Positions 38,882 to 62,572 of a stretch of DNA of 62,572 bases are shown piece by piece. Numbering within the stretch: the stretch's first letter is position 1; the number at the start of each line of letters is the position of its first letter. This DNA comes from a virus (lineage: Duplodnaviria > Heunggongvirae > Uroviricota > Caudoviricetes), in IMG/VR virus record IMGVR_UViG_2671180890_000001; one strand, given 5' to 3'. Under the pieces are notes generated by a model. The model was not told the origin of the DNA, did not search any database, and worked only from the letters and a program-made list of their open reading frames with translations. The position numbers were made by a program, and so were the translations under genes.

Positions 38882-38923
38882 TTAGACTCTTTTACTACCC
38901 CGTCCAGAAGGGCGGGGTGTGCA

Positions 38924-39452: not shown

Positions 39453-39470
39453 TTATCCCTCCGTGACCAG

Positions 39471-39797: not shown

Positions 39798-39812
39798 AAA
39801 TCCTCCTGAAAA

Positions 39813-42608: not shown

Positions 42609-42631
42609 GAATAATTCTCCTCAACGTTTAT

Positions 42632-43779: not shown

Positions 43780-44017
43780 GCTTACGACTCTCCTTAATCG
43801 ACTGCTTTACCCGCCGAGTTGTAAAGTCACTCTTCAGCTTATAAGCAGTACGAACTTCAATATCGCTTTGCCGCAATGAAGGAATCTCTCCAGCGGTTAA
43901 CCATTGGTAAACAGCTCCGGGTGTTACACCTACCCCTGCCGCTGCTTTTTCTACACTGCCAAAATGGCGAATAAGTTCTTCTGGTTTCATGTTGTTATTA
44001 TAAACAATAAACAACAA
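43769..44017 (-). CDS. cro: Cro-like repressor
   Basis: 82 aa with HTH (VGVTPGAVYQWL), divergent from the CI-like repressor. Confidence 0.6.
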   Translation of the reverse strand: MLFIVYNNNMKPEELIRHFGSVEKAAAGVGVTPGAVYQWLTAGEIPSLRQSDIEVRTAYKLKSDFTTRRVKQSIKESRKRGA

Positions 44018-44081
44018 TTAAAGCCAGCTATAATAAATAAATTTTATAGCCAGCTATAAGAAGATCATTTATGATTACAGT
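44018..44081. promoter_or_regulatory. Divergent promoter/operator region between cro and cB
   Basis: Repeated AGCCAGCTATAA / TTATAGCCAGCTATAA motifs. Confidence 0.5.
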
Positions 44082-44678
44082 ATGAAAACACGAGGCGAAC
44101 GACTGAAAGCACGCCGTTTAGAGATGAAGCTGACGTTGCGAGAAGTTGCTGAGGCTGTCGATATCTCTATAGCAGGCGTCCAAAACTTAGAACGTGGCGA
44201 CGTAATGCCGTCACTGGAGATAGGTATTGCCCTGGCTAAGTGCTTACGCAAGCCAGTGCATTGGGTGCTATATGGGACAGAATATGACCCTGATCGCATT
44301 CCTGTTATTGGCACAACTGAAAGTGGGCCGGATGAAGAGTGGAAGCCGGGACAGGTTCCAAATACTGAGCGATTCCTGCCATTCATCAGCCAGCGCAATA
44401 CTGTGTATGCGTTAACTATCAGCAATCTTACGCAGGGAAACTATCAGCCAGGCGATTTTCTCCTGGTCGATTCTGCGCTGGAACTGGTCCCCGGCGAGGA
44501 TGTTCTGGTTCGTGATACTGCAGGAAATATCACTATCCAGCGCCTGGCCCGTTTTGATGATGAAAATTACTATCTGGATGGAACAAACTCACAACGCGCC
44601 ATCTTCAGGAAAAGCGATCTTGAATTTGTTCACCAAATAGTCGGAACGATCAAATCATTCATGGTTGAGGGTAGATGA
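44082..44678 (+). CDS. cB: Prophage repressor, CI/CB-like (HTH plus C-terminal S24-like domain)
   Basis: 198 aa; N-terminal HTH_XRE LTLREVAEAVDISIAGVQNLERG. Confidence 0.8.
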   Translation: MKTRGERLKARRLEMKLTLREVAEAVDISIAGVQNLERGDVMPSLEIGIALAKCLRKPVHWVLYGTEYDPDRIPVIGTTESGPDEEWKPGQVPNTERFLPFISQRNTVYALTISNLTQGNYQPGDFLLVDSALELVPGEDVLVRDTAGNITIQRLARFDDENYYLDGTNSQRAIFRKSDLEFVHQIVGTIKSFMVEGR

Positions 44679-44923
44679 CTTAATACGGGGTTTATTGTTT
44701 GCTGTAAATCTGGTTTAATGCAGGGCATATGTTCTGTGGGTTGACTCAGGTTACAGCAGCAGAAAAAAGACGAAAAAAAACCCGAGTCGGCAAACTCGGG
44801 TCCTTTTCAGGAAGCAGCCACAGTAACGCGACGGATTCCGTCAATTCAAGATGCGTTTATTGTGGCTGCTCCTGCGGATTTTTTCAACCCGAAAAAACAT
44901 AATTCGCATGGAATTGCTAAAAA

Positions 44924-47900
44924 ATGACATTAAACGATTTCTATGCGGATCGCTTTGGCAGCGATCCGTTCTCGCTAATTGAAGCAGCACGGGATGAACT
45001 AACCGAGCTGGCACAGATGGCTGGTATCAACTGGCCTGCCTGTTCCGACAACATCCAACTCAACCCTCGCGGGGGGGTTGAGCGTTACTCTTCATACAAT
45101 AAAACATCTCCAGAAGCTCTCGAAAAGAGCCTGAAAGGACGCGTAGAAATTTACTCCAGGCTGGAACACAGCAAAGGGATTGATTACCCGTTCATTAACT
45201 TCGTCCATAAAGGCAGCGATGCTGGCTCATGGAGCGGTTTCTCCTTCCTGTTTTCTGAATATCGCCGTGAGCAACAACGGAATAATGCGACCGTGGTCGC
45301 ACAACCGGAAGAAGAACGGGAAAGAATAGAACGTCAGGCCGAAGCACGTCGTCGCCGTGAAGAACAAAAACGAATTAATGACCTGAAAAACAACCAAATG
45401 GACCATGAACGTTTGCTGGGATGGCTGGCATTCCACAGCGCGTGGGAACATGCTCCGGCTGAAGACGGCTCATGGCCATATGCGATTAAAAAAGGTATTC
45501 GTGACGTTTTTAGTTCATGTGATGTGCGTCGCGTGACCAGTCACGACAGTGCGAAATGGAGCCGGGGGCCAACCACATATATGGCTATCCCTCTGGCTCA
45601 CCTGGACAGTCGTTATGATGGTCGTATTGTGGGTTGGCAGCGAATCGACAAACAAGGTGGGAAATACCAGACCAGCGCAGTAACCAGCGGCGATTTCGTC
45701 GGTGCCTGCTTTGTTATCGGTGAGCTGAAAGGGGCGCAAAACATCGCTGTTACAGAAGGTTTTGCTACTGGTGCATCCATCTGGCTTGCCACGAAAAAAG
45801 ATAAACGCTTTGACGCTGTGGTTGTCGCTGTATCCGCTAACAACATGGTTCATGTTGTGGAACAACTGGTAAACATGTACCCGGCGGCAAAAATCACCTG
45901 CGCACTGGATAATGACCGGAAATCTGCCACAGAAGGAAAAGGGAATACCGGCCTGCGGACTGGCTATGAAATCTTATCGAAATTCAACGATGTCCGCTGC
46001 GTCTATCCAACTTTTGAAGACGATCCGCAAATGGAGTGCAGTGACTTCAACGACCTGCACAAACTACGTGGACTTCGTGAAACAGCACGTCAACTGTTTG
46101 CAACAGCAAACCGCCTGAAAACCGGTACTGATTTGCTATCTCTGACGCTCAACCGCCTGAAGACAATTAAGCGGGATAACCGTCGTACTTTTGCCAAAGA
46201 GCTGCTGAGAGCGGTGGATATTGGCATGCTAACCTGTCCGGTTCCTAACAGTCCGTCAGATTTATTTAACATGTTCTGCATCGTTCTGCGTGAAATGGGA
46301 CTGGAAAATATCTATCGTGCTACGGTAAAAGACCACATTGCCCGTCGCCTGAATAAAAAGTGCCGTATTGCCCAGGCTCCGCGCTCTTTCAGCGAACGCA
46401 TAACTGATCCCAATAAACGACCTCAACATATCACCTATAAGCGTTTTGAAACTTCGGTAATGACCGATGATGTCCTGAAGTACGTGCAATCACTACAGGG
46501 GATAGTCATCGTCCGTGCTGGTATGGGTTCCGGCAAATCTACTGGATTGTTACGACCGTTAATGCATAGCTCAGAACGTGGTATCTCTGTTGCTCACCGT
46601 GTCTCCCTTATTGGTGGCCTGTGGGAAATGATGACAGAAGGAAAAGGTGTAAAAGCCGATATCCTGCACTATCAGGATCCTGGCTATCAGGAAATGGCTC
46701 CATACGCCAGTAAACTGACCATCTGCATAAACTCGATTGTTAAAAACTGCTGGCAACCGTTGATGCGCCAGCACGACTATTTTGGCTTTGACGAGGCCAC
46801 ACAAGGGCTACGTGCCGTTCTTTCCGGTCGGGCTATGGAAAACCCGGTGGCTGTATTCAATACGCTAATTGACGCGCTGGCCAGAACGGAACAACACCCA
46901 ATCATGGTGGATGCTGATGCGAACGATCTGCTGGTTGACCTGGCTGAACTGGCTATGAAACGCCGTGAAGAACTAGGTTTACCGGCATGGCTGCAGATCC
47001 ACGTAATTGAATTACCTGTTGATGTTCGCAACCGCGAAACAGGTGAGCCAATCCGGGTTTTTTATACAGAAAAAGATCGCATCATGACCGAGGTGGTGAA
47101 AGCTGTATCGGATGGCGAAAAAATCATGTTGGCCACCGACAGCTCCACCTTTGCAGAAGATGTGACAGCCACCCTGAGAATGCATTTTCCTGGTAAGAAA
47201 TTTCTGTGTGTAAACCAGAAAAACAAACCAGAGCCAGAAGTTGAAGCATTTACCAATCAACCGAAAAAGATGGTCAAAAAATACGACGGCCTGATTTATA
47301 GCCCGTCTATTTCATCCGGCGTGTCGATTGAGCAAAAACATTTTGACCGTCATTTCGGCATGTTCTGTGGTGAAGTTGTACCCAGCGACGCAGTGCAAAT
47401 GCTACGCCGCGACCGTACAGCAAAAGAATTTATTATCGGCTTTGATAAAGCTCGTGCAAAACGTGAAACTGACCCGCAAAAAATAGAACGAGCATTCGCC
47501 CAGGCATTGCTTGCTACTGCAGGTATGAACGGTGAACTGACGGATGTCGTTTTCGATGGCGACCGTATATCAATGGGGGTGGCCAATACCGACTTTACCA
47601 GGATGAAAATTAAAGCAGCCGCAATTGAAGCGTCTGCACGTAACGACTACGCCAGCAACATGATCTGCATCATGCACAGCGACGGTTATAAGATATCGCC
47701 GCTGGCCACCGATTATGCTGCAAATGATATCGGTAAAGATCTGCGTAAAGAAGCGCGGGATATTGTGTGGGAACAGACACTGGATCTGCATCTCAATACA
47801 GAAACTCCACAAGAATCAGAGCGTGAAGAACTGCTAAAAAAACGCGCGCTGACGCTTGAAGAACAGGCAAAACTTGTCCGCTGGGATATTGAGAACGAAC

Positions 47901-48919
47901 TGAAACTACCGGTTGAAGAAGGCACGCTGAAATTCTATTTCGATGGTGCTCGAGACAAAGTTCGCCGCTATGAAACAATGCTTTTAGATGAGGTAACAGC
48001 TCGTCGTTACGACCGGGAAGAAGCAGCCATCAATTTTACCTACGCATACCGTCAGGCGGGACAGTGGCAATATTTTGTAGTGACCGCAATGACTCGCGAG
48101 CAGGCTGATGATGTCTTTAAAACTAAATTCCCTGGAATAATCGACTACAAGGTAAAAGCTACTCCTACTGTTGAAGTCGGGGCGCGCGGTTTCTATGCGC
48201 TTAAATCAGCAACTCTCCGGCAGTACTTTATCGACTGCGGTATCAACCCTGAGACTATGACCGGCGAGGCGACTCAGGAGCGTCTCAAATTTGCTCGAGA
48301 TAACCTCATGACAGCCGAACGCCGTGACCTGTTGAATAACGTTCTGCACATTGGTGGTTTTATGACGCCAAAAGGGAAGCCTAAAGTGCCGGAAGCGTTG
48401 TTTAAAAACATTTGCGACTCTCTTGGCCTTAAAACAGGTAAACGTCGCGGCAGAGACGGCGATAAGCGTCCAACCTTGCGTTTTGTTGAGCCTGAATCAG
48501 CGGCATTTATGCTGGATATTCTTGCTCAGCGTCAGAAAGATGGCCTAACCCTGAAAACGCGTAAAGCCGAGAAGACTGCCATCGAAATGGATCGCGATTT
48601 GGATCTCAATATATATATGGATGATAAAACGCGATCCACAAACGAGCAGGTTCAAAACGCCCCTCATTCAGTAATTTCTGAGGCTTTGGCTGTGTTGCCA
48701 GTGGTTGTACCTGAGTCCTGGGCGATGAGTGCGCTTTCCGGTGAGGAGCTGGCCACTATGTCATCATGGTCATCAGCTAGCATAGCTATGACGTTTGCAT
48801 CTCTGTACCTCACAGAGTTCATGGATCACTTATCCAGCAATGAACTGCGGCGGTTACGTGAATACATTACCGGGAATAGCCCATGCAGCTACGAAGAGCA
48901 GGGCGCTTTCTATGGGTAA
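44924..48919 (+). CDS. repA: RepA multifunctional replication protein (primase plus helicase), N15 RepA-like
   Basis: 1331 aa; TOPRIM-like CALDNDRK region; Walker A GMGSGKST. Confidence 0.9.
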   Translation: MTLNDFYADRFGSDPFSLIEAARDELTELAQMAGINWPACSDNIQLNPRGGVERYSSYNKTSPEALEKSLKGRVEIYSRLEHSKGIDYPFINFVHKGSDAGSWSGFSFLFSEYRREQQRNNATVVAQPEEERERIERQAEARRRREEQKRINDLKNNQMDHERLLGWLAFHSAWEHAPAEDGSWPYAIKKGIRDVFSSCDVRRVTSHDSAKWSRGPTTYMAIPLAHLDSRYDGRIVGWQRIDKQGGKYQTSAVTSGDFVGACFVIGELKGAQNIAVTEGFATGASIWLATKKDKRFDAVVVAVSANNMVHVVEQLVNMYPAAKITCALDNDRKSATEGKGNTGLRTGYEILSKFNDVRCVYPTFEDDPQMECSDFNDLHKLRGLRETARQLFATANRLKTGTDLLSLTLNRLKTIKRDNRRTFAKELLRAVDIGMLTCPVPNSPSDLFNMFCIVLREMGLENIYRATVKDHIARRLNKKCRIAQAPRSFSERITDPNKRPQHITYKRFETSVMTDDVLKYVQSLQGIVIVRAGMGSGKSTGLLRPLMHSSERGISVAHRVSLIGGLWEMMTEGKGVKADILHYQDPGYQEMAPYASKLTICINSIVKNCWQPLMRQHDYFGFDEATQGLRAVLSGRAMENPVAVFNTLIDALARTEQHPIMVDADANDLLVDLAELAMKRREELGLPAWLQIHVIELPVDVRNRETGEPIRVFYTEKDRIMTEVVKAVSDGEKIMLATDSSTFAEDVTATLRMHFPGKKFLCVNQKNKPEPEVEAFTNQPKKMVKKYDGLIYSPSISSGVSIEQKHFDRHFGMFCGEVVPSDAVQMLRRDRTAKEFIIGFDKARAKRETDPQKIERAFAQALLATAGMNGELTDVVFDGDRISMGVANTDFTRMKIKAAAIEASARNDYASNMICIMHSDGYKISPLATDYAANDIGKDLRKEARDIVWEQTLDLHLNTETPQESEREELLKKRALTLEEQAKLVRWDIENELKLPVEEGTLKFYFDGARDKVRRYETMLLDEVTARRYDREEAAINFTYAYRQAGQWQYFVVTAMTREQADDVFKTKFPGIIDYKVKATPTVEVGARGFYALKSATLRQYFIDCGINPETMTGEATQERLKFARDNLMTAERRDLLNNVLHIGGFMTPKGKPKVPEALFKNICDSLGLKTGKRRGRDGDKRPTLRFVEPESAAFMLDILAQRQKDGLTLKTRKAEKTAIEMDRDLDLNIYMDDKTRSTNEQVQNAPHSVISEALAVLPVVVPESWAMSALSGEELATMSSWSSASIAMTFASLYLTEFMDHLSSNELRRLREYITGNSPCSYEEQGAFYG
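45286..45301. promoter_or_regulatory. sopC-like centromere palindrome, site 5, inside repA codons 121-127
   Basis: TGCGACCGTGGTCGCA encoding NATVVAQ. Confidence 0.6.
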
Positions 48920-49103
48920 TCAGTGGATATTATCTTTGTGTCTCTTGCTTTGTGTGTTCCAGCAATGGTTTTGGTTCATAGATCGAAAGTCTCACAAGGA
49001 AAACATGAAGGCCAGGAAGGCGATGTTTCGTGGTGAACAACTCGCGCAGACTTATCGTATGTGGAAACGTTTCTATCGTGATTTTTCGGTGAACGGGGAG
49101 TAA
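48912..49103 (+). CDS. Hypothetical small membrane protein
   Basis: Internal Met MGNQWILSLCLLLC; overlaps repA stop. Confidence 0.4.
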   Translation: MGNQWILSLCLLLCVFQQWFWFIDRKSHKENMKARKAMFRGEQLAQTYRMWKRFYRDFSVNGE

Positions 49104-49107
49104 AAAT

Positions 49108-49434
49108 ATGTCTACTACTGCATTTTTGGACAAACTTGATTACCGTCAGCTGCAGTTTTGCCGGGATGAATGCGATCGACGCATTAAGGCTATCCAGGAG
49201 GAAGAAAAAAAGGTTGCCTGGGCTGTAACAGATCGTGGCCTTATCTTTGGCTGGTTCCGTACGGAGGATTATCTGAAAGCAGTGGAATTATTGGCGCGTG
49301 AGGCTGCTGAGCGTTGGGAACGAGCCGACAAGGAAAACCCGGAGACGAAGTATGAACTGAATCTCTACATCGAGGGCAACCGTCTACCATTGTCAGAGTA
49401 TAACGCTTTGTTTGCTGATGGTGAGTGGGGTTAA
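49108..49434 (+). CDS. Hypothetical protein
   Basis: 108 aa ORF. Confidence 0.5.
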   Translation: MSTTAFLDKLDYRQLQFCRDECDRRIKAIQEEEKKVAWAVTDRGLIFGWFRTEDYLKAVELLAREAAERWERADKENPETKYELNLYIEGNRLPLSEYNALFADGEWG

Positions 49435-49832
49435 AAATGGCTGTTCAATCATACAAATACGAATCCCCTTTGGATAAGGGATACATTCGTATCAAGTTAA
49501 GTCGTTCTCAACATAAGGCTATTTTTAAGGTAAGGAAAATTCGCATATTGGATGCGTATGCGTATTACTACAACGGTGAAAATGTTGTTGTTGAACACTT
49601 TCTTGCACGATGGTTTGTAGCTCTGATTTTTGTCCCTCTCCTGTTAATTGGTACTTTTGTGGATGGTTTTCCTAGTACATGGCGGGAGATAAAGAAAGGC
49701 CTATTCCCGCGTAAGTACGGCAGATTTTCGCAAGATAGCTGGCGAGTTATACCTGGTAAACATTCTGTGGATGAGCAGCCGATTGTTGATTACTGGTTGA
49801 AGCGTATGGCTGATGCTAAAAAAGTTGATTGA
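49425..49832 (+). CDS. Hypothetical membrane protein
   Basis: 135 aa ORF with a central hydrophobic segment. Confidence 0.5.
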   Translation: MGLKMAVQSYKYESPLDKGYIRIKLSRSQHKAIFKVRKIRILDAYAYYYNGENVVVEHFLARWFVALIFVPLLLIGTFVDGFPSTWREIKKGLFPRKYGRFSQDSWRVIPGKHSVDEQPIVDYWLKRMADAKKVD

Positions 49833-49921
49833 ATAGTGATGACTGTTCAAGTTAAACCGTTCTCGGCATATTTTATTTAATGGAATAACATATTATTAAT
49901 CAAATAGGTTAAGTTAATATT

Positions 49922-50734
49922 ATGCGTAACAAAAAAACAACAGCTTTATTACTCTCTATCTTGTTATTATCTGGATGCACTTATCAATATGATAATAAGG
50001 CATCAACGGACGTTGAGTATAAATTCGAAAAAGAAAAAAGAGTACCTATCAACTCTGTTGGTGATTTTAGCAGCAAAATACTCACAGGTAAGGAATTTAA
50101 TAGAATTATTGCATCAAAGATAGATGATGGTTCATGGCGTGGATATGTCGTTCACTCATTAACATACGCGCCATACAACAACGTTTTAACATCTCAAGGT
50201 TTGTCTATCCCTAGAAGTATCACATACTCAGGAACATATCTTAACCGTGATTTTGTTGAGAATAGCGGTAGTGATAGCGTGATAACATCTCGAGATATGT
50301 CTGGATGGTATGGTTTTCATGTCGATTCCTCTGAAATAACAAAGCATGGAAGCTATGTTGGTGCTAATGCTTTTGGAATATCTGCTGATGTAGAAGTGTT
50401 AAATACTTTAGGTGCCGAAATTATCTTTGGTAGTACACAAATAAATGAAGGGAACCCTGAAACAATATGGGCAGATATTGATATAAAAGGACAAATACCA
50501 AAAGATGTTAATGTAAAAGACCTTAGAATTGAATATTTAGCAAAGATAAATGGGTTAAGCAGTAATCATATTGATATAACATCACCTACTATTTTTAACC
50601 CGTCAGATATGAGCCATAAAACTCAGGTTTTTATGGGTGAGTTATTAGCCGCGCGCCTAATAAATATTAAAACGGGAGAAATTTATCCAGTACAGCTAGA
50701 GTGGGTGTTCCGTTCGCGTGAGGCTTTCTTATAA
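49922..50734 (+). CDS. Moron lipoprotein, function unknown
   Basis: 270 aa; signal peptide with lipobox LLSGC; strongly AT-rich gene. Confidence 0.6.
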   Translation: MRNKKTTALLLSILLLSGCTYQYDNKASTDVEYKFEKEKRVPINSVGDFSSKILTGKEFNRIIASKIDDGSWRGYVVHSLTYAPYNNVLTSQGLSIPRSITYSGTYLNRDFVENSGSDSVITSRDMSGWYGFHVDSSEITKHGSYVGANAFGISADVEVLNTLGAEIIFGSTQINEGNPETIWADIDIKGQIPKDVNVKDLRIEYLAKINGLSSNHIDITSPTIFNPSDMSHKTQVFMGELLAARLINIKTGEIYPVQLEWVFRSREAFL

Positions 50735-50864
50735 CGGAACAATAACATTGTTCATGTTCTGATCGTTTGTTCAAGCAAACTATAAAAACACCTGTCCCCG
50801 TGACTGGTCACGGGGTAAAATGTCTTTGCAAATTATTGACGTGTGCGTCGTTTTGGAGGTAAAG

Positions 50865-50950
50865 TCACCTCGCTGCGGTAAATCCCGCAGTCGGGACTTC
50901 GCAATCCTGGCAAAACGAAGCGCACAACACGCGCCAGCGTGTTTTTTTGT
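50865..50950 (+). ncRNA. Candidate c4-like cis-antisense regulatory RNA upstream of icd-ant
   Basis: TTGACG and TAAAGT promoter-like hexamers, CTGCGG/CCGCAG stem-loop, ACACGC/GCGTGT terminator plus T7; two 8 nt blocks complementary to a site about 100 nt downstream. Confidence 0.4.
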
Positions 50951-51111
50951 GTGTATAGACCTGCGCATATCCGAATTATGGTGGCTCAGGTGGGGCTGAC
51001 TTCGGTCGGGCCGGTTTCTTCGTTTACCGGTATTGCGAACCCCGCCTGGGCTACCACCAATAAAGAGATTCGCAACTCTGGTGGTAGCACGACCAATAAA
51101 ACGGAGTGCAT

Positions 51112-51279
51112 ACCATGTTCAAATTCAAATTTGCGGCAGTCGTTCGCACAGACAAAAAGTCCCACATTCATCATCTTTCCACTATCGCGTCATCTGAACG
51201 GGAAGCTCGTCGCCAGTTCGCCAGCCGGTTTGTCCTGGTATTGTCTGCCCGTATTCCGGTGCGCGAGGTGGCTGCATGA
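51112..51279 (+). CDS. icd: Icd-like cell division inhibitor (55 aa)
   Basis: MFKFKFAAVVRTDKK ... SSEREARRQFAS pattern; not in the ORF track because under 60 aa; coordinates approximate. Confidence 0.45.
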   Translation, partial: TMFKFKFAAVVRTDKKSHIHHLSTIASSEREARRQFASRFVLVLSARIPVREVAA

Positions 51280-51509
51280 ATCAGGTAAAAATGAACACTG
51301 TTGGCCTGCTGGAATCGTTGGATGAACGTCTGGCTCAGGTCTATGCGCTCGTATCATCAGCCCATCGGACAGTCTCCAGTTGTGAGGCGTCGATTTACCT
51401 CTCAGAGGCTGGAAAACTTCTGCAGATTGCGTGTGAGTTAACGCATGAAGCACAGGGATATTCTGCGTCTCTCTCGTCGCACTTGCTGCGCGATAAGGAG
51501 GCTGAATGA
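51276..51509 (+). CDS. Hypothetical protein in the antirepressor operon
   Basis: 77 aa ORF, translationally coupled to the flanking genes. Confidence 0.5.
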   Translation: MNQVKMNTVGLLESLDERLAQVYALVSSAHRTVSSCEASIYLSEAGKLLQIACELTHEAQGYSASLSSHLLRDKEAE

Positions 51510-52288
51510 GCGCGTTAGCAGTCTTTTCCTTTCAGGAAGAGCATCAGGTTCGTGTAGTGATGATTAACGGTGAGCCGTGGTTTGTGGCTAAGGATGTATG
51601 TGATGCTTTAAGACTCGTTAATTCCCGGAAGGCGCTAATGTCTCTGGATGAGGATGAAAAGGGTGTAACTTTAAGTTACACCCCTGGCGGAGAGCAAAAG
51701 CTAAATATTATTTCAGAGTCAGGTCTATACACCCTGATCCTCCGCTGCCGTGACGCGGTGAAGCAAGGCACAACAGCTTGGCGGTTTCGCAAATGGGTAA
51801 CGAACGAAGTCTTGCCCTCTATTCGCAAAAATGGAGAGTACGTTTACATCGAGCCTGAGCCAATGCGAGCAGCGGAGCCGTTGAACTGGAGGCAGAAAGA
51901 GTATCTGCGAGGGCTGATTAACGATATAGCACAAAGTTTTCAGTACCGAAATGCCTGGATTAGCGGTGTATGGTTAGCTTTGCGTCGGGCGTGTCGTAAT
52001 CCATCCCCGAACCCCATAACGGTTGATGATTTGCCAGCAATTACGGCAGAACTGCGCCGGATTTTGACGGCTGCTGAGTCGGCATTGGGGAACATGCGCA
52101 CGTATGAACGAGAGTTGTTGCGTGATGTTGTTCGTGGGGGTAGGCGGAGTATGTCGTGTGGTGATTTACCCATCACCGATATTAACTCTGATCTGGAAAA
52201 GGCGTTACCCGCGCATTTTGAACTGGCAGTTCAAAAACTTGAGCAGTTATCCGCGCAGCTAAAGCCAGCAGAAATCACCAATAAATAG
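51506..52288 (+). CDS. Antirepressor with Bro-N domain
   Basis: 260 aa; N-terminal FSFQEEHQVRVVMINGEPWFVAKDVCDAL. Confidence 0.75.
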   Translation: MSALAVFSFQEEHQVRVVMINGEPWFVAKDVCDALRLVNSRKALMSLDEDEKGVTLSYTPGGEQKLNIISESGLYTLILRCRDAVKQGTTAWRFRKWVTNEVLPSIRKNGEYVYIEPEPMRAAEPLNWRQKEYLRGLINDIAQSFQYRNAWISGVWLALRRACRNPSPNPITVDDLPAITAELRRILTAAESALGNMRTYERELLRDVVRGGRRSMSCGDLPITDINSDLEKALPAHFELAVQKLEQLSAQLKPAEITNK

Positions 52289-52459
52289 GGTTGACCAGCC
52301 CGAATTTATGCCCTTCTTAGAGAAGGGAAGCCTCGCAGTCGGGGCGGTGATGTCTGTGGTTGCAGCCGCGTTTCCTCCGTTACTTCTGCCCTTTGCAGGG
52401 GGCAGGCGAGGTAGGTCACACAACAAGGCACCGTTAATTCGGTGCCTTTACTGTATGCT

Positions 52460-54355
52460 TTAACCGAAATATGTCAGCCATGCTAACTGCATTGCTGACA
52501 TGGGGCTGTTTGCACTGCCGGACCACGCATAATTCTGGCCATTATAATGAAACTCAACAACGTATGAGCCATCACCAATATTTCTCACCGGCTTAAATAC
52601 CGGCTTAGATACAGGCGAAGAAGGTGCAGGCGGTTGCTGTTCTTCTACGCTATCTTCCTCTTCCTCTTCCTCTATCTCAATTTCGTCGTCATCCAGATCG
52701 TCATCCTCTGATAATTCATCCGCCAGTTCAGGTATTGCTTCCAGTTCTTCTTCGTCAGGCATAACGATTTCTGGAGTATCTATTTTCAGTTGCCATTGTC
52801 CGTTTTCGCCAACAAATTGCCCCAGAGCATCAGCAGCAAATTCCAGGTATCGACTAATCATTGTTGGGCTAAATTTGAACGCTCTTAGAGTGCTGTTCGT
52901 GATTTTTATAGAGGGGTCCTGCTCTACCAGCTGCTTAACTGTGTTATGCAGACGAACCCCGGCATCTCCTCTGGCGAATCCAGGCATTTCGTCATCAAGC
53001 TGCTGCAATGCTTCCAGCCTGGTATTTTCGTTTCCAGTATTTGGCCTCCATGTCTTTGAGAAGTTGGCCAGCTTGAATTGCTTATAGTGTAATTGAGTGT
53101 TTTCATCGTCATGGCCTAAAATTTCCATAAAGAAAACATCTTCATCTACGTTTTTCCAACGAGGATCTACGCGGAAAAACATTTCATACGCAATACGGGC
53201 ATAAATAGCACGACTATCTTTATAAACACGGCGGTCATCTTTGAAAAATGATTTAACCCACGGGTTAAAAGCCTTTGCTAATATGGCATTAATACGTCCG
53301 TTTTCAGAGCGTGTGTCGTTATCTCCATAACCTTTAACGACATCATCAAAATCAGATGCTGCTGGGCATGAGCGAAGTACATTTATTAAATAAACAAATG
53401 TTTTTGCTTCGCATAATGTATATATTTTTCTGGTTATATCATCAGAAGTTCTTTTTTTAGCTTGGCCTAAAAAATCAACGGTATACTTACCAGAAACAGT
53501 AAATGTACCTTGATACATAATCTCAATCATTCGTCTTCCTGACAATGCAGCAAGTGCAAATGCCAAAGGAGCCATACCTGAACGAGTGTTTAGATTATTT
53601 AATGTAGCAGGGCTATTTATAATATCGTAAATAGCTTGCATATATTTAGGGTAATCAATGACCACCACGTTACGTTTCTTATTGTGCAGAACGTCCGCCC
53701 ATCGTTGCTGGATAGATGCACGTTCGGCAGGGCTTAGTTGAAGATGATAGAGAATCTCATGGTTAACTTTTAGCTGATTCAACTCCTCAAGTAAGGCAGA
53801 TCCTTGCTGTAGTAATTTATATAAATAATCGCGCTTATCTTTCCAGTTATCGCTAGTTAAATCAGAAATGGCGAATTGCCACTCTTTATATTTATTTGAT
53901 AATTTCAATAACTTATTATGACTTTTGTTATCGCCAATTCTGATATTAGATAAATCTTCTGATAGAGGGAGAATTAATTTTAATTTTGCCTGTAAAGCTG
54001 ACATTCTCTGGCGAATATCGGCAGCAGGTAGAGAAAGCCATGACAATAGCTCCTCATTATATAAAGGATACTTTTCAGATAGGCGATGTATATTTTTTTC
54101 AAAGCTATGATGAAGTTTATCATCAAACCGTTTTCTGGCCCTGCTCATATAGGCATTGAATGTGTTGGCTGTAATTCTTTTTTCTAATCCTTTCCCCCTA
54201 AACTTTCGCTTGTCATTAAATAATGCATTTTTAAATTTTAATGCAACAGCCTTTATTTTTTTTGTTTTCTCCCCTTGAGGACGGTCAGAGTTATCTATTG
54301 ACTCAACATCGCTAACAAGTGAGTTTATTAATTCACCGATTTTTACTTTGCTCAT
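52460..54355 (-). CDS. telN: Protelomerase TelN
   Basis: 631 aa; adjacent to the telomere palindrome; N15 TelN-like length and position. Confidence 0.9.
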   Translation of the reverse strand: MSKVKIGELINSLVSDVESIDNSDRPQGEKTKKIKAVALKFKNALFNDKRKFRGKGLEKRITANTFNAYMSRARKRFDDKLHHSFEKNIHRLSEKYPLYNEELLSWLSLPAADIRQRMSALQAKLKLILPLSEDLSNIRIGDNKSHNKLLKLSNKYKEWQFAISDLTSDNWKDKRDYLYKLLQQGSALLEELNQLKVNHEILYHLQLSPAERASIQQRWADVLHNKKRNVVVIDYPKYMQAIYDIINSPATLNNLNTRSGMAPLAFALAALSGRRMIEIMYQGTFTVSGKYTVDFLGQAKKRTSDDITRKIYTLCEAKTFVYLINVLRSCPAASDFDDVVKGYGDNDTRSENGRINAILAKAFNPWVKSFFKDDRRVYKDSRAIYARIAYEMFFRVDPRWKNVDEDVFFMEILGHDDENTQLHYKQFKLANFSKTWRPNTGNENTRLEALQQLDDEMPGFARGDAGVRLHNTVKQLVEQDPSIKITNSTLRAFKFSPTMISRYLEFAADALGQFVGENGQWQLKIDTPEIVMPDEEELEAIPELADELSEDDDLDDDEIEIEEEEEEDSVEEQQPPAPSSPVSKPVFKPVRNIGDGSYVVEFHYNGQNYAWSGSANSPMSAMQLAWLTYFG

Positions 54356-54525
54356 CTTTCCTCTCCTGATTATCCGCTCGGATTATCGTAACACAATTTG
54401 AGAATAAGATAACTAATAACGCGTTAACTTAGGCACAAACTAACAGAACACAACAACGGATAATAAATAAAAACACAATATCGGAACGTTAAAATTTGTT
54501 CCTTGACTTTGTTCTGAAAATCAGC

Positions 54526-54567
54526 ACATAATTCCCCATTATACGCACGTATAATGGGGAATTATGT
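54526..54567. repeat. Right hairpin telomere (telR) read-through: same 20 bp arms around a CA centre at 54546-54547
   Basis: ACATAATTCCCCATTATACG-CA-CGTATAATGGGGAATTATGT. Confidence 0.85.
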
Positions 54568-54737
54568 GCTGATTTTCAGAACAAAGTCAAGGAACAAATT
54601 TTAACGTTCCGATATTGTGTTTTTATTTATTATCCGTTGTTGTGTTCTGTTAGTTTGTGCCTAAGTTAACGCGTTATTAGTTATCTTATTCTCAAATTGT
54701 GTTACGATAATCCGAGCGGATAATCAGGAGAGGAAAG

Positions 54738-56633
54738 ATGAGCAAAGTAAAAATCGGTGAATTAATAAACTCACTTGTTAGCGATGTTGAGTCAATAGAT
54801 AACTCTGACCGTCCTCAAGGGGAGAAAACAAAAAAAATAAAGGCTGTTGCATTAAAATTTAAAAATGCATTATTTAATGACAAGCGAAAGTTTAGGGGGA
54901 AAGGATTAGAAAAAAGAATTACAGCCAACACATTCAATGCCTATATGAGCAGGGCCAGAAAACGGTTTGATGATAAACTTCATCATAGCTTTGAAAAAAA
55001 TATACATCGCCTATCTGAAAAGTATCCTTTATATAATGAGGAGCTATTGTCATGGCTTTCTCTACCTGCTGCCGATATTCGCCAGAGAATGTCAGCTTTA
55101 CAGGCAAAATTAAAATTAATTCTCCCTCTATCAGAAGATTTATCTAATATCAGAATTGGCGATAACAAAAGTCATAATAAGTTATTGAAATTATCAAATA
55201 AATATAAAGAGTGGCAATTCGCCATTTCTGATTTAACTAGCGATAACTGGAAAGATAAGCGCGATTATTTATATAAATTACTACAGCAAGGATCTGCCTT
55301 ACTTGAGGAGTTGAATCAGCTAAAAGTTAACCATGAGATTCTCTATCATCTTCAACTAAGCCCTGCCGAACGTGCATCTATCCAGCAACGATGGGCGGAC
55401 GTTCTGCACAATAAGAAACGTAACGTGGTGGTCATTGATTACCCTAAATATATGCAAGCTATTTACGATATTATAAATAGCCCTGCTACATTAAATAATC
55501 TAAACACTCGTTCAGGTATGGCTCCTTTGGCATTTGCACTTGCTGCATTGTCAGGAAGACGAATGATTGAGATTATGTATCAAGGTACATTTACTGTTTC
55601 TGGTAAGTATACCGTTGATTTTTTAGGCCAAGCTAAAAAAAGAACTTCTGATGATATAACCAGAAAAATATATACATTATGCGAAGCAAAAACATTTGTT
55701 TATTTAATAAATGTACTTCGCTCATGCCCAGCAGCATCTGATTTTGATGATGTCGTTAAAGGTTATGGAGATAACGACACACGCTCTGAAAACGGACGTA
55801 TTAATGCCATATTAGCAAAGGCTTTTAACCCGTGGGTTAAATCATTTTTCAAAGATGACCGCCGTGTTTATAAAGATAGTCGTGCTATTTATGCCCGTAT
55901 TGCGTATGAAATGTTTTTCCGCGTAGATCCTCGTTGGAAAAACGTAGATGAAGATGTTTTCTTTATGGAAATTTTAGGCCATGACGATGAAAACACTCAA
56001 TTACACTATAAGCAATTCAAGCTGGCCAACTTCTCAAAGACATGGAGGCCAAATACTGGAAACGAAAATACCAGGCTGGAAGCATTGCAGCAGCTTGATG
56101 ACGAAATGCCTGGATTCGCCAGAGGAGATGCCGGGGTTCGTCTGCATAACACAGTTAAGCAGCTGGTAGAGCAGGACCCCTCTATAAAAATCACGAACAG
56201 CACTCTAAGAGCGTTCAAATTTAGCCCAACAATGATTAGTCGATACCTGGAATTTGCTGCTGATGCTCTGGGGCAATTTGTTGGCGAAAACGGACAATGG
56301 CAACTGAAAATAGATACTCCAGAAATCGTTATGCCTGACGAAGAAGAACTGGAAGCAATACCTGAACTGGCGGATGAATTATCAGAGGATGACGATCTGG
56401 ATGACGACGAAATTGAGATAGAGGAAGAGGAAGAGGAAGATAGCGTAGAAGAACAGCAACCGCCTGCACCTTCTTCGCCTGTATCTAAGCCGGTATTTAA
56501 GCCGGTGAGAAATATTGGTGATGGCTCATACGTTGTTGAGTTTCATTATAATGGCCAGAATTATGCGTGGTCCGGCAGTGCAAACAGCCCCATGTCAGCA
56601 ATGCAGTTAGCATGGCTGACATATTTCGGTTAA
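54738..56633 (+). CDS. telN: Protelomerase TelN (fold-back copy)
   Basis: Identical 631 aa translation. Confidence 0.85.
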   Translation: MSKVKIGELINSLVSDVESIDNSDRPQGEKTKKIKAVALKFKNALFNDKRKFRGKGLEKRITANTFNAYMSRARKRFDDKLHHSFEKNIHRLSEKYPLYNEELLSWLSLPAADIRQRMSALQAKLKLILPLSEDLSNIRIGDNKSHNKLLKLSNKYKEWQFAISDLTSDNWKDKRDYLYKLLQQGSALLEELNQLKVNHEILYHLQLSPAERASIQQRWADVLHNKKRNVVVIDYPKYMQAIYDIINSPATLNNLNTRSGMAPLAFALAALSGRRMIEIMYQGTFTVSGKYTVDFLGQAKKRTSDDITRKIYTLCEAKTFVYLINVLRSCPAASDFDDVVKGYGDNDTRSENGRINAILAKAFNPWVKSFFKDDRRVYKDSRAIYARIAYEMFFRVDPRWKNVDEDVFFMEILGHDDENTQLHYKQFKLANFSKTWRPNTGNENTRLEALQQLDDEMPGFARGDAGVRLHNTVKQLVEQDPSIKITNSTLRAFKFSPTMISRYLEFAADALGQFVGENGQWQLKIDTPEIVMPDEEELEAIPELADELSEDDDLDDDEIEIEEEEEEDSVEEQQPPAPSSPVSKPVFKPVRNIGDGSYVVEFHYNGQNYAWSGSANSPMSAMQLAWLTYFG

Positions 56634-56804
56634 AGCATACAGTAAAGGCACCGAATTAACGGTGCCTTGTTGTGTGACCTACCTCGCCTGCCCCCTGCAA
56701 AGGGCAGAAGTAACGGAGGAAACGCGGCTGCAACCACAGACATCACCGCCCCGACTGCGAGGCTTCCCTTCTCTAAGAAGGGCATAAATTCGGGCTGGTC
56801 AACC

Positions 56805-57587
56805 CTATTTATTGGTGATTTCTGCTGGCTTTAGCTGCGCGGATAACTGCTCAAGTTTTTGAACTGCCAGTTCAAAATGCGCGGGTAACGCCTTTTCCAG
56901 ATCAGAGTTAATATCGGTGATGGGTAAATCACCACACGACATACTCCGCCTACCCCCACGAACAACATCACGCAACAACTCTCGTTCATACGTGCGCATG
57001 TTCCCCAATGCCGACTCAGCAGCCGTCAAAATCCGGCGCAGTTCTGCCGTAATTGCTGGCAAATCATCAACCGTTATGGGGTTCGGGGATGGATTACGAC
57101 ACGCCCGACGCAAAGCTAACCATACACCGCTAATCCAGGCATTTCGGTACTGAAAACTTTGTGCTATATCGTTAATCAGCCCTCGCAGATACTCTTTCTG
57201 CCTCCAGTTCAACGGCTCCGCTGCTCGCATTGGCTCAGGCTCGATGTAAACGTACTCTCCATTTTTGCGAATAGAGGGCAAGACTTCGTTCGTTACCCAT
57301 TTGCGAAACCGCCAAGCTGTTGTGCCTTGCTTCACCGCGTCACGGCAGCGGAGGATCAGGGTGTATAGACCTGACTCTGAAATAATATTTAGCTTTTGCT
57401 CTCCGCCAGGGGTGTAACTTAAAGTTACACCCTTTTCATCCTCATCCAGAGACATTAGCGCCTTCCGGGAATTAACGAGTCTTAAAGCATCACATACATC
57501 CTTAGCCACAAACCACGGCTCACCGTTAATCATCACTACACGAACCTGATGCTCTTCCTGAAAGGAAAAGACTGCTAACGCGCTCAT
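56805..57587 (-). CDS. Bro-N antirepressor (fold-back copy)
   Basis: Identical 260 aa translation. Confidence 0.7.
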   Translation of the reverse strand: MSALAVFSFQEEHQVRVVMINGEPWFVAKDVCDALRLVNSRKALMSLDEDEKGVTLSYTPGGEQKLNIISESGLYTLILRCRDAVKQGTTAWRFRKWVTNEVLPSIRKNGEYVYIEPEPMRAAEPLNWRQKEYLRGLINDIAQSFQYRNAWISGVWLALRRACRNPSPNPITVDDLPAITAELRRILTAAESALGNMRTYERELLRDVVRGGRRSMSCGDLPITDINSDLEKALPAHFELAVQKLEQLSAQLKPAEITNK

Positions 57588-57817
57588 TCAGCCTCCTTAT
57601 CGCGCAGCAAGTGCGACGAGAGAGACGCAGAATATCCCTGTGCTTCATGCGTTAACTCACACGCAATCTGCAGAAGTTTTCCAGCCTCTGAGAGGTAAAT
57701 CGACGCCTCACAACTGGAGACTGTCCGATGGGCTGATGATACGAGCGCATAGACCTGAGCCAGACGTTCATCCAACGATTCCAGCAGGCCAACAGTGTTC
57801 ATTTTTACCTGATTCAT
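57584..57817 (-). CDS. Hypothetical 77 aa protein (fold-back copy of 51276..51509)
   Basis: Identical translation. Confidence 0.45.
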   Translation of the reverse strand: MNQVKMNTVGLLESLDERLAQVYALVSSAHRTVSSCEASIYLSEAGKLLQIACELTHEAQGYSASLSSHLLRDKEAE

Positions 57818-58357
57818 GCAGCCACCTCGCGCACCGGAATACGGGCAGACAATACCAGGACAAACCGGCTGGCGAACTGGCGACGAGCTTCCCGTTCAGA
57901 TGACGCGATAGTGGAAAGATGATGAATGTGGGACTTTTTGTCTGTGCGAACGACTGCCGCAAATTTGAATTTGAACATGGTATGCACTCCGTTTTATTGG
58001 TCGTGCTACCACCAGAGTTGCGAATCTCTTTATTGGTGGTAGCCCAGGCGGGGTTCGCAATACCGGTAAACGAAGAAACCGGCCCGACCGAAGTCAGCCC
58101 CACCTGAGCCACCATAATTCGGATATGCGCAGGTCTATACACACAAAAAAACACGCTGGCGCGTGTTGTGCGCTTCGTTTTGCCAGGATTGCGAAGTCCC
58201 GACTGCGGATTTACCGCAGCGAGGTGACTTTACCTCCAAAACGACGCACACGTCAATAATTTGCAAAGACATTTTACCCCGTGACCAGTCACGGGGACAG
58301 GTGTTTTTATAGTTTGCTTGAACAAACGATCAGAACATGAACAATGTTATTGTTCCG

Positions 58358-59170
58358 TTATAAGAAAGCCTCACGCGAACGGAACACCCACTCTAGCTGT
58401 ACTGGATAAATTTCTCCCGTTTTAATATTTATTAGGCGCGCGGCTAATAACTCACCCATAAAAACCTGAGTTTTATGGCTCATATCTGACGGGTTAAAAA
58501 TAGTAGGTGATGTTATATCAATATGATTACTGCTTAACCCATTTATCTTTGCTAAATATTCAATTCTAAGGTCTTTTACATTAACATCTTTTGGTATTTG
58601 TCCTTTTATATCAATATCTGCCCATATTGTTTCAGGGTTCCCTTCATTTATTTGTGTACTACCAAAGATAATTTCGGCACCTAAAGTATTTAACACTTCT
58701 ACATCAGCAGATATTCCAAAAGCATTAGCACCAACATAGCTTCCATGCTTTGTTATTTCAGAGGAATCGACATGAAAACCATACCATCCAGACATATCTC
58801 GAGATGTTATCACGCTATCACTACCGCTATTCTCAACAAAATCACGGTTAAGATATGTTCCTGAGTATGTGATACTTCTAGGGATAGACAAACCTTGAGA
58901 TGTTAAAACGTTGTTGTATGGCGCGTATGTTAATGAGTGAACGACATATCCACGCCATGAACCATCATCTATCTTTGATGCAATAATTCTATTAAATTCC
59001 TTACCTGTGAGTATTTTGCTGCTAAAATCACCAACAGAGTTGATAGGTACTCTTTTTTCTTTTTCGAATTTATACTCAACGTCCGTTGATGCCTTATTAT
59101 CATATTGATAAGTGCATCCAGATAATAACAAGATAGAGAGTAATAAAGCTGTTGTTTTTTTGTTACGCAT
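58358..59170 (-). CDS. Moron lipoprotein (fold-back copy)
   Basis: Identical 270 aa translation. Confidence 0.55.
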   Translation of the reverse strand: MRNKKTTALLLSILLLSGCTYQYDNKASTDVEYKFEKEKRVPINSVGDFSSKILTGKEFNRIIASKIDDGSWRGYVVHSLTYAPYNNVLTSQGLSIPRSITYSGTYLNRDFVENSGSDSVITSRDMSGWYGFHVDSSEITKHGSYVGANAFGISADVEVLNTLGAEIIFGSTQINEGNPETIWADIDIKGQIPKDVNVKDLRIEYLAKINGLSSNHIDITSPTIFNPSDMSHKTQVFMGELLAARLINIKTGEIYPVQLEWVFRSREAFL

Positions 59171-59259
59171 AATATTAACTTAACCTATTTGATTAATAAT
59201 ATGTTATTCCATTAAATAAAATATGCCGAGAACGGTTTAACTTGAACAGTCATCACTAT

Positions 59260-59667
59260 TCAATCAACTTTTTTAGCATCAGCCATACGCTTCAACCAGT
59301 AATCAACAATCGGCTGCTCATCCACAGAATGTTTACCAGGTATAACTCGCCAGCTATCTTGCGAAAATCTGCCGTACTTACGCGGGAATAGGCCTTTCTT
59401 TATCTCCCGCCATGTACTAGGAAAACCATCCACAAAAGTACCAATTAACAGGAGAGGGACAAAAATCAGAGCTACAAACCATCGTGCAAGAAAGTGTTCA
59501 ACAACAACATTTTCACCGTTGTAGTAATACGCATACGCATCCAATATGCGAATTTTCCTTACCTTAAAAATAGCCTTATGTTGAGAACGACTTAACTTGA
59601 TACGAATGTATCCCTTATCCAAAGGGGATTCGTATTTGTATGATTGAACAGCCATTTTTAACCCCAC
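59260..59667 (-). CDS. Hypothetical membrane protein (fold-back copy of 49425..49832)
   Basis: Identical translation. Confidence 0.45.
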   Translation of the reverse strand: MGLKMAVQSYKYESPLDKGYIRIKLSRSQHKAIFKVRKIRILDAYAYYYNGENVVVEHFLARWFVALIFVPLLLIGTFVDGFPSTWREIKKGLFPRKYGRFSQDSWRVIPGKHSVDEQPIVDYWLKRMADAKKVD

Positions 59668-59984
59668 TCACCATCAGCAAACAAAGCGTTATACTCTGAC
59701 AATGGTAGACGGTTGCCCTCGATGTAGAGATTCAGTTCATACTTCGTCTCCGGGTTTTCCTTGTCGGCTCGTTCCCAACGCTCAGCAGCCTCACGCGCCA
59801 ATAATTCCACTGCTTTCAGATAATCCTCCGTACGGAACCAGCCAAAGATAAGGCCACGATCTGTTACAGCCCAGGCAACCTTTTTTTCTTCCTCCTGGAT
59901 AGCCTTAATGCGTCGATCGCATTCATCCCGGCAAAACTGCAGCTGACGGTAATCAAGTTTGTCCAAAAATGCAGTAGTAGACAT
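59658..59984 (-). CDS. Hypothetical protein (fold-back copy of 49108..49434)
   Basis: Identical translation. Confidence 0.45.
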   Translation of the reverse strand: MSTTAFLDKLDYRQLQFCRDECDRRIKAIQEEEKKVAWAVTDRGLIFGWFRTEDYLKAVELLAREAAERWERADKENPETKYELNLYIEGNRLPLSEYNALFADGEWG

Positions 59985-60172
59985 ATTTTTACTCCCCGTT
60001 CACCGAAAAATCACGATAGAAACGTTTCCACATACGATAAGTCTGCGCGAGTTGTTCACCACGAAACATCGCCTTCCTGGCCTTCATGTTTTCCTTGTGA
60101 GACTTTCGATCTATGAACCAAAACCATTGCTGGAACACACAAAGCAAGAGACACAAAGATAATATCCACTGA

Positions 60173-62151
60173 TTACCCATAGAAAGCGCCCTGCTCTTCG
60201 TAGCTGCATGGGCTATTCCCGGTAATGTATTCACGTAACCGCCGCAGTTCATTGCTGGATAAGTGATCCATGAACTCTGTGAGGTACAGAGATGCAAACG
60301 TCATAGCTATGCTAGCTGATGACCATGATGACATAGTGGCCAGCTCCTCACCGGAAAGCGCACTCATCGCCCAGGACTCAGGTACAACCACTGGCAACAC
60401 AGCCAAAGCCTCAGAAATTACTGAATGAGGGGCGTTTTGAACCTGCTCGTTTGTGGATCGCGTTTTATCATCCATATATATATTGAGATCCAAATCGCGA
60501 TCCATTTCGATGGCAGTCTTCTCGGCTTTACGCGTTTTCAGGGTTAGGCCATCTTTCTGACGCTGAGCAAGAATATCCAGCATAAATGCCGCTGATTCAG
60601 GCTCAACAAAACGCAAGGTTGGACGCTTATCGCCGTCTCTGCCGCGACGTTTACCTGTTTTAAGGCCAAGAGAGTCGCAAATGTTTTTAAACAACGCTTC
60701 CGGCACTTTAGGCTTCCCTTTTGGCGTCATAAAACCACCAATGTGCAGAACGTTATTCAACAGGTCACGGCGTTCGGCTGTCATGAGGTTATCTCGAGCA
60801 AATTTGAGACGCTCCTGAGTCGCCTCGCCGGTCATAGTCTCAGGGTTGATACCGCAGTCGATAAAGTACTGCCGGAGAGTTGCTGATTTAAGCGCATAGA
60901 AACCGCGCGCCCCGACTTCAACAGTAGGAGTAGCTTTTACCTTGTAGTCGATTATTCCAGGGAATTTAGTTTTAAAGACATCATCAGCCTGCTCGCGAGT
61001 CATTGCGGTCACTACAAAATATTGCCACTGTCCCGCCTGACGGTATGCGTAGGTAAAATTGATGGCTGCTTCTTCCCGGTCGTAACGACGAGCTGTTACC
61101 TCATCTAAAAGCATTGTTTCATAGCGGCGAACTTTGTCTCGAGCACCATCGAAATAGAATTTCAGCGTGCCTTCTTCAACCGGTAGTTTCAGTTCGTTCT
61201 CAATATCCCAGCGGACAAGTTTTGCCTGTTCTTCAAGCGTCAGCGCGCGTTTTTTAGCAGTTCTTCACGCTCTGATTCTTGTGGAGTTTCTGTATTGAGA
61301 TGCAGATCCAGTGTCTGTTCCCACACAATATCCCGCGCTTCTTTACGCAGATCTTTACCGATATCATTTGCAGCATAATCGGTGGCCAGCGGCGATATCT
61401 TATAACCGTCGCTGTGCATGATGCAGATCATGTTGCTGGCGTAGTCGTTACGTGCAGACGCTTCAATTGCGGCTGCTTTAATTTTCATCCTGGTAAAGTC
61501 GGTATTGGCCACCCCCATTGATATACGGTCGCCATCGAAAACGACATCCGTCAGTTCACCGTTCATACCTGCAGTAGCAAGCAATGCCTGGGCGAATGCT
61601 CGTTCTATTTTTTGCGGGTCAGTTTCACGTTTTGCACGAGCTTTATCAAAGCCGATAATAAATTCTTTTGCTGTACGGTCGCGGCGTAGCATTTGCACTG
61701 CGTCGCTGGGTACAACTTCACCACAGAACATGCCGAAATGACGGTCAAAATGTTTTTGCTCAATCGACACGCCGGATGAAATAGACGGGCTATAAATCAG
61801 GCCGTCGTATTTTTTGACCATCTTTTTCGGTTGATTGGTAAATGCTTCAACTTCTGGCTCTGGTTTGTTTTTCTGGTTTACACACAGAAATTTCTTACCA
61901 GGAAAATGCATTCTCAGGGTGGCTGTCACATCTTCTGCAAAGGTGGAGCTGTCGGTGGCCAACATGATTTTTTCGCCATCCGATACAGCTTTCACCACCT
62001 CGGTCATGATGCGATCTTTTTCTGTATAAAAAACCCGGATTGGCTCACCTGTTTCGCGGTTGCGAACATCAACAGGTAATTCAATTACGTGGATCTGCAG
62101 CCATGCCGGTAAACCTAGTTCTTCACGGCGTTTCATAGCCAGTTCAGCCAG
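60173..62151 (-). pseudogene. repA: repA 3' two thirds, fold-back copy, frameshifted (T6 here versus A7 in the primary copy near 47838) and truncated at the chimeric junction
   Basis: ORFs 60173..61114 and 61240..62136 match RepA residues from about 673 onward in two frames. Confidence 0.75.
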
Positions 62152-62572
62152 CCGCCTTCACATGCCGGACCATTACCGTCTATGAAGGCTCCAGACCAGG
62201 TACGCTGAATGATTTTCCTCGGTGCCATGACGGAAGATGATGTCATGCCGGAGGCATTGCGCCGTTTTCAGGAAATGGTGGAAGAAGCGGCACGCAACGC
62301 CGAAGCCGCTTCTCAGAGCGCAGCGGCGGCAAAGAATCCGAAACTGCAGCGGCATCATCGAAGAACGCGGCGAAAACCTCAGAAACGAATGCAGCTAACA
62401 GCGCACAGGCGGCAGCGACCTCACAGACTGCATCGGCAAACTCCGCGACAGCAGCTAAAAAATCAGAAACCAACGCGAAAAATAGCGAGACAGCCGCAAA
62501 GACGAGCGAAACCAACGCAAAGTCCAGCCAGACGCAGCGAAGACCAGCGAAACGAATGCTAAAGCCAGTGAA
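62152..62572 (+). repeat. stf: Fold-back copy of stf codons about 70-210 (primary 12333..12753), continuous with window position 1
   Basis: Translation ...FLGAMTEDDVMPEALRRFQEMVEEAARNAEAASQSAAAAK... with three homopolymer indels; last codons KASE join first codons TAAKNSQ as in the primary copy. Confidence 0.7.

Follow-up and report, generated by a model that had tools for sequence, protein, structure and literature searches.

Closure of a hairpin-ended linear N15-like phage-plasmid into what is very probably a false 62.6-kb circle in an Escherichia coli plasmid record

The stretch of DNA analysed here (the window; 62,572 nucleotides) is GenBank record CP014491.1 of GCA_001566635.1, replicon pG749_3 of E. 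coli ST131 strain G749, which carries two back-to-back copies of telN. An internal joint at 62151/62152 is very probably an artefact, produced when a hairpin-ended linear phage-plasmid was assembled and its two fold-back arms were joined into a false 62.6-kb circle. The real replicon, at 6166..54545 (+), would be a linear N15-like phage-plasmid of 48,380 bp (48,382 bp if one apex base per end is included).

Self-comparison of the window revealed two giant inverted repeats. In the first, the sequence 46940-54545 is repeated in inverted orientation as 54548-62151 (arm of 7,604 nt, central spacer of 2 nt); in the second, 6166-12754 is repeated in the same manner as the circular stretch 62152-62572 plus 1-6163 (arm of 6,584 nt, central spacer of 2 nt). 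Since arms of 6.6-7.6 kb differ by 1-nt indels alone, with no substitutions, chance is impossible as an explanation. The right extension arm (54548..62151; 7,604 nt), a redundant reverse-complement copy of 46940-54545, contains the second telN copy together with a repA that lacks its first ~672 codons. The left extension arm is written in two parts: 62152..62572 (421 nt) is the reverse complement of 12332-12754, within stf, and 1..6163 (6,163 nt), the reverse complement of 6166-12331, directly continues position 62572 and holds stf, tail-fibre accessory genes, sopB, and sopA. The window wraps without a gap, 12332 pairing with 62572 and 12331 with 1, and a 334-aa peptide read across 62536..62572 and 1..967 matches Stf residues 200-533 exactly and in frame. 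No unique sequence was found in the extension arms, which are inverted duplicates centred exactly on the telomeres described below. A preliminary description had presented the contig as written as a circle, consisting of the whole genome and two partial fold-back arms (7.6 and 6.6 kb) and running on in frame and in repeat register from 62572 into position 1. Self-comparison, base pairing, and the Stf peptide bear out these statements.

The joint lies exactly at 62151..62152, where the mirror of mid-repA meets the mirror of stf: 62151 is the reverse complement of 46940, and it abuts 62152, the reverse complement of 12754. The switch without homology that had been placed near 62151 was thus located to the base, and its counterpart in stf, given as about 12753, proved to be in the right locus but one base away from the actual position, 12754. 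Breakpoint 46940 is within repA (44924..48919, +), at about codon 672; breakpoint 12754 is within stf (10583..12964, -), at about codon 70, near the 5' end of the gene. Topologically, the mirror strand looks as if 12755-46939 (34,185 nt) had been deleted from it, the two flanks having a common orientation. Two 5'-truncated genes, repA and stf, stand head to head at the joint, so no gene or functional fusion is created by it.

Breakpoint comparison revealed neither inserted bases nor microhomology at 62151/62152, a result with which illegitimate joining would also be compatible. No homology was found between the 150-nt flanks on either side of the two breakpoints, as local alignment scores were 9 in the forward and 11 in the reverse orientation, while shuffled sequences gave a mean of 8.2 and a maximum of 14. 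Neither the 5,426 complete E. coli genomes searched nor the 72,556 PLSDB plasmids include a joint-spanning record, all matches there ending at 62151 or beginning at 62152, and the exact 35-mer at the joint was not found in IMG/VR, GTDB genomes, or JGI metagenomes. A genuine deletion or recombination junction would be recognized by homology at the breakpoints or by recurrence in independent assemblies; neither was seen.

The positions of the two fold-backs are non-random: each has a hairpin telomere of an N15-like linear prophage at its centre. The left (sop-side) telomere apex, at 6164..6165, is the centre of CCCCATTATA-CGTGCG-TATAATGGGG and marks the left end of the real genome; the right (telN-side) apex, at 54546..54547, is the centre of CCCCATTATA-CGCACG-TATAATGGGG. 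Both centres fall, to the base, in the middle of the protelomerase target palindrome CCCCATTATACGnnCGTATAATGGGG, the telRL core of N15, which is annotated in NC_001901 as "cut site for prophage formation". They also match the positions of telL and telR as annotated in PhiR46_1 (PV340565.1), which was deposited as a linear prophage with telL as its first and telR as its last 22 bases, so that the ends of that record are at the fold-back centres of the window. The core at the left apex is the same as N15 telRL and the annotated telR of PhiR46_1, and telL (position 1 of the PhiR46_1 record) aligns at the right apex. An intact telN is located 191 nt from the right fold-back centre. Telomere resolvases make cuts 6 bp apart in the middle of their palindromic target, and the overhangs are refolded into hairpins (PMC10686437). 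In the window, the continuity of the strand through both ends is seen as exact fold-backs, the sequence signature of closed hairpins. Judged from the sequence, the fold-backs appear to be real hairpin telomeres that were read through by the sequencer, and only the extensions and the joint appear to be artificial. The fold-back centres give the telomere positions to the base, with no experiment needed.

Between the telomeres, the sequence 6166-54545 is collinear over its whole length with both PhiR46_1 and NZ_CP104505.1. Its gene for the protelomerase that forms hairpin ends, telN (52460..54355, -), is intact and codes for 631 aa; the product matches TelK_N, TelK_muzzle, ResT-TelK_cat, and TelK_stirrup, all above Pfam cut-offs, and has 77% identity to N15 TelN along its entire length (631 aa versus 631 aa). 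The primary copy of repA is intact (1,331 aa) and yields Pfam matches to Toprim and an origin-binding helicase; in relatives, the gene is annotated as 'plasmid replication protein, CyRepA1 family'. The gene for the side tail fibre, stf, is likewise intact in the primary copy (793 aa), and its product matches phage_tail_N (E = 4e-66). The partition genes sopA and sopB (6622..8753, +; AAA_31/CbiA and SoPB_HTH matches) adjoin the left telomere. In addition to repA, telN, and sopAB, the gene content includes lambda-like head, tail, and lysis genes and cI/cro/Q. The terminase, portal, capsid, tail, and lysis genes have 95-98% nucleotide identity to those of PhiR46_1, 2G7b, and others. The element thus has a protelomerase, a telRL-type palindrome by telN, RepA together with SopAB, and lambda-like virion and lysis modules, as an N15-like telomere phage-plasmid does. 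In its natural state it should be a linear prophage with covalently closed hairpin ends made by TelN; the biology of N15-like hairpin-telomere phage-plasmids is already known.

Escherichia phage N15 (Ravinvirus N15), whose prophage is a linear plasmid with hairpin telomeres, has the same telRL core (CCCATTATACG..CGTATAATGG), located, as here, between sopA and telN, and shares repA, sopAB, and the lambda-like structural module. It differs in the tail-fibre region, in several accessory genes, and in the central hexamer, which is CGCGCG in N15 but CGTGCG/CGCACG here. Nucleotide similarity is far higher to PhiR46_1, YDC107_1, and NZ_CP104505.1 (E. coli plasmid/phage records) than to N15. PhiR46_1 itself has neither the extension arms nor the joint, and is diverged in the stf-to-sop region (84-93% identity or unaligned).

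Comparison of the extension arms with the primary copy revealed 13 differences, all of them 1-nt homopolymer indels. Only two are in the right arm, both deletions (at 61256 and 58209), and at these sites relatives have the primary-copy allele. The 421-nt segment 62152..62572 has four single-base indels and is the poorest consensus in the window; segment 1..6163 has seven, six of which fall at 968-1735, close to the joint and distant from the hairpin. Altogether, ten of the 13 indels are no more than 2.2 kb from the joint, on its stf side. On the repA side of the joint the consensus is clean, its last 900 nt being free of indels. Relatives were informative at nine of the 13 sites and had the primary allele at all nine; the remaining four are inside stf, which is an intact ORF in the primary copy only. 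The mirror stf is frameshifted, whereas repA, stf, and sopA all have undamaged ORFs in the primary copy. Given these ORFs and the alleles of the relatives, it is the extension arms that represent the poorer consensus. Every arm difference that could be judged appears to be an error in the extension copy; with the four stf sites assigned by ORF integrity, all 13 count as such.

According to the published description of strain G749, PacBio RSII sequencing was carried out with SMRTbell libraries prepared from unsheared DNA that had been size-selected at >7 kb, and reads were assembled with HGAP3 and Quiver (PMC4933990); the PacBio data are under BioProject PRJNA307507. Replicons that were "completed and circular" were "reoriented" and then polished again (PMC4933990). 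Because of this reorientation, the joint is not at the record ends, and instead lies 421 nt from the end of the window. For pG749_3, the paper gives the size only and does not discuss the replicon (PMC4933990).

Long reads are known to run on beyond hairpin ends onto the other strand (PMC13293297), and assemblers 'erroneously extend hairpin ends'; Autocycler trims such 'hairpin overlaps' (PMC12460055). In hairpin-overlap misassemblies of Agrobacterium and other Rhizobiaceae, the contig continues past the hairpin into a redundant, telomere-centred inverted copy, as it does here: both duplicates in the window are centred on telomeres and contain no unique sequence, and the consensus of the extension copies is poorer. 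An ordinary hairpin overlap is at a contig end, whereas here the extensions were, in addition, joined and rotated, which placed the false joint inside the record.

We infer the exact way in which the assembler or the authors closed the circle to have been as follows. A hairpin-ended fragment is one continuous strand, and a read that rounds the hairpin would be palindromic, with twice the length of the fragment. HGAP3 would then extend the contig beyond both telomeres into the opposite strand (the 'hairpin overlap'), yielding the redundant arms 54548-62151 and 62152-6163. Past the right hairpin, the reads would already have been used in the forward copy, leaving no true continuation for the layout. 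The mirror of repA would then have been linked to the mirror of stf, most likely through a single chimeric read or insert, or by forced closure. The path would next round the left hairpin and re-enter sequence that had already been assembled, and the resulting apparent self-overlap would lead to the contig being called circular, rotated, and polished again. Read support at 62151/62152 is accordingly expected to be absent under this scheme.

The same fault was observed in related records. Among the 26 PLSDB records that match the telN-side end, 11 contain a complete telR-telR palindrome, eight contain an ordinary telRL junction, and seven match by the record end only, six beginning and one ending within ~100 nt of the telomere. 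NZ_LT906558.1 (61,544 bp, linear) consists of the genome and two arms with no joint (palindromes at 1-18478 and 48358-61544), and NZ_CP104505.1 has one extension arm. CP088738.1 (77,165 bp, 'circular') contains palindromes at 1-26543 and 45166-77165, and the closing point of its circle, different from that of the window and equally arbitrary, joins mirror copies of a tail gene and an early gene. Thus, the position of the joint is idiosyncratic for each assembly, as is expected of an artefact and not of biology. The fault therefore affects about 40% (11/26) of the related PLSDB records, several of which are labelled circular. In the case of CP014491.1, what is filed as a complete circular plasmid of 62.6 kb would be a linear molecule of 48.4 kb to which 14.2 kb of redundant sequence, riddled with frameshifts, has been added. 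Duplicated genes and broken ORFs from such arms get into protein databases, and the inflated size and wrong topology skew surveys of plasmids and phage-plasmids; the practical value of the present analysis is in database hygiene, that is, in the correction of CP014491.1 and similar records.

The artificial nature of the joint, which the preliminary description had asserted, is strongly favoured by the lack of a database match, by the worst consensus being located beside the joint, and by the closure of the sister record elsewhere, though it is not proven. Three observations run against it. The clean repA side of the joint does not look obviously thin in coverage; the topology is that of a simple deletion, as a real deletion variant would give; and the published account of the assembly documents no route by which a non-overlapping joint would pass HGAP and manual circularization (PMC4933990). 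The additional assertion that no real molecule has the joint is slightly too strong, since the term would also cover a chimeric insert in the library or a rare molecule with a deletion.

A joint that is real and resides on a second molecule, a 14.2-kb hairpin-ended deletion derivative (delta 12755-46939) accompanying the full-length plasmid, is unlikely, even though it would account for the deletion topology and the common orientation of the flanks. In that case, the assembler would have followed the full-length path on one strand and the deletion path on the return strand. Such a derivative would retain both telomeres, telN, sopAB, and the 3' half of repA. The origin of N15 has been reported to lie inside repA, and if the same is true here, replication of the derivative in trans is conceivable. 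Its truncated repA, however, would lack Toprim and the N-terminal part of the protein. The lack of microhomology and of the joint in any other record also speaks against a deletion derivative, as does the equally arbitrary closure of sister record CP088738.1 at another place, and the four indels per 421 nt at the joint argue against many supporting molecules. It is accordingly quite improbable that G749 also harbours a 14.2-kb stf'-'repA mini-derivative, i.e., a defective, parasitic linear mini-replicon that is replicated in trans.

The contig could, alternatively, be right as written, the element being a 62.6-kb circular double-stranded plasmid with two giant palindromes. The record was deposited as a complete circular plasmid and its wrap is seamless, but we consider this reading very unlikely. 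A circle of this kind would hold two replicated-telomere junctions together with two intact telN genes, and telomere resolvases cut such junctions into hairpins (PMC10686437). Resolution of both junctions would produce linear molecules of 48.4 and 14.2 kb, so the circle as written is no maintainable replicon. Homopolymer indels that break ORFs in one of the copies are, moreover, a signature of consensus error and not of two evolving copies, and relatives with a size of about 46-48 kb correspond collinearly to 6166-54545 only.

Subreads with missed SMRTbell adapters are palindromic and might therefore have produced the fold-backs as pure library artefacts of a replicon without hairpin ends, but this is just as improbable as a true circle, because both centres are exactly at the centre of the protelomerase palindrome and match telL and telR of PhiR46_1, 11 other records fold back at the same site, and no SMRTbell or ONT adapter sequence was found in the whole window with up to 6 errors allowed.

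Replication of a hairpin-ended molecule leads to a circular inverted-repeat dimer, which is resolved again (PMC10686437). The dimer has telL-telL and telR-telR palindromic junctions within a circle, as does the contig. It was rejected as an identity for the window: two complete copies would amount to 2 x 48,382 = 96,764 bp versus the 62,572 observed, and the dimer is complete, whereas the contig lacks 12755-46939, or 34,185 nt, of the second copy.

The central hexamers of the two telomeres, CGTGCG at the left and CGCACG at the right, are mutually reverse complementary, the apex bases being T,G and C,A instead of C,G. The corresponding sequence is CGCGCG in every relative examined, including five contigs with an identical TelN protein. 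A search for the T-variant core in three collections yielded no exact matches, and the canonical core was found in 35 IMG/VR stretches. The complementarity of the two hexamers might be taken to prove that one telRL site was cut with a 6-bp stagger; this argument was rejected, because a read that folds back symmetrically aligns to the reference in both orientations. Replication would yield both forms of the hexamer at each end, and the form shown for a given end is therefore arbitrary and uninformative. The T variant may be a private substitution that telRL had already acquired when lysogeny was established, or else an error of the consensus at the hairpin apex. If the T:A change exactly in the middle of the palindrome is a real private substitution, each telomere might exist in two 'flip/flop' forms.

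The genes in the extension arms of the window (54548-62151 and 1-6163), which are mirror copies of the replicon's ends, are spurious duplicates. Some of them are disrupted by consensus indels: a 270-aa ORF at positions 49922-50734 has its mirror at approximately 58359-59171, in the right extension arm, where the copy is called as 145 aa, and the mirror of stf, the side tail fibre gene, is fragmented. The proteins of such extension-arm genes in the GenBank record are artefactual.

A full telR-telR palindrome, an inverted duplicate centred on the telomere, was found in 11 of the 26 related PLSDB plasmid records, and results from hairpin read-through in these records. Five of them (CP088738.1, CP088379.1, CP088810.1, CP088430.1, and NZ_CP126957.1), comprising every record whose topology was looked up, are labelled "circular"; the others are CP088562.1, CP088559.1, NZ_CP019258.1, NZ_CP031108.1, NZ_LR883007.1, and NZ_LT906558.1. 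The 11 records range in size from 4.4 to 91.5 kb, and the palindrome layout was dissected for two of them (CP088738.1 and NZ_LT906558.1). For CP088430.1, which is 91,525 bp long, the record may represent the element completely at double length. Two IMG/VR contigs, IMGVR_UViG_2791355284_000001 (92,470 bp) and IMGVR_UViG_2907875362_000001 (52,919 bp), contain the canonical telomere core two or three times, and are probably additional telomere-phage contigs with hairpin read-through or a double-length representation. Many other canonical-core matches in IMG/VR appear to lie no more than a few dozen bases from an end of the retrieved stretch; breakage of short-read assemblies at the palindrome would produce such a pattern.

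The window itself differs from its relatives at the centre of the telomere palindrome. The central hexamer is CGTGCG in the left telomere (6162-6167) and CGCACG in the right telomere (54544-54549), whereas it is CGCGCG in N15, in the collinear relative PhiR46_1, and in all other relatives checked, including five contigs that encode an identical TelN protelomerase. The telomere core with the T variant had no exact match in the three collections searched; the canonical core was present in 35 IMG/VR stretches. Two readings of the T-variant hexamer are considered: an error in the consensus at the hairpin apex, or a private substitution, which if true would imply flip/flop telomeres.

In the deposited linear record of PhiR46_1 (PV340565.1), the entire 22-bp palindrome is present at each end (1-22 and 46269-46290). 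The record thus runs 11 nt too far beyond the hairpin apex at either end, which is a minor issue of convention.

The "repeat register" named in the preliminary description corresponds to imperfect repeats inside stf (window 11900-12500; ca. 190 nt each, 79-91% identity), whose mirror occupies positions 1-344 and 62335-62572. The repeats encode an alanine/serine-rich '...KTSETNAKSSQTAAKTSETNAKASETAAK...' segment; internal repeats of this type are ordinary in lambdoid side tail fibres.
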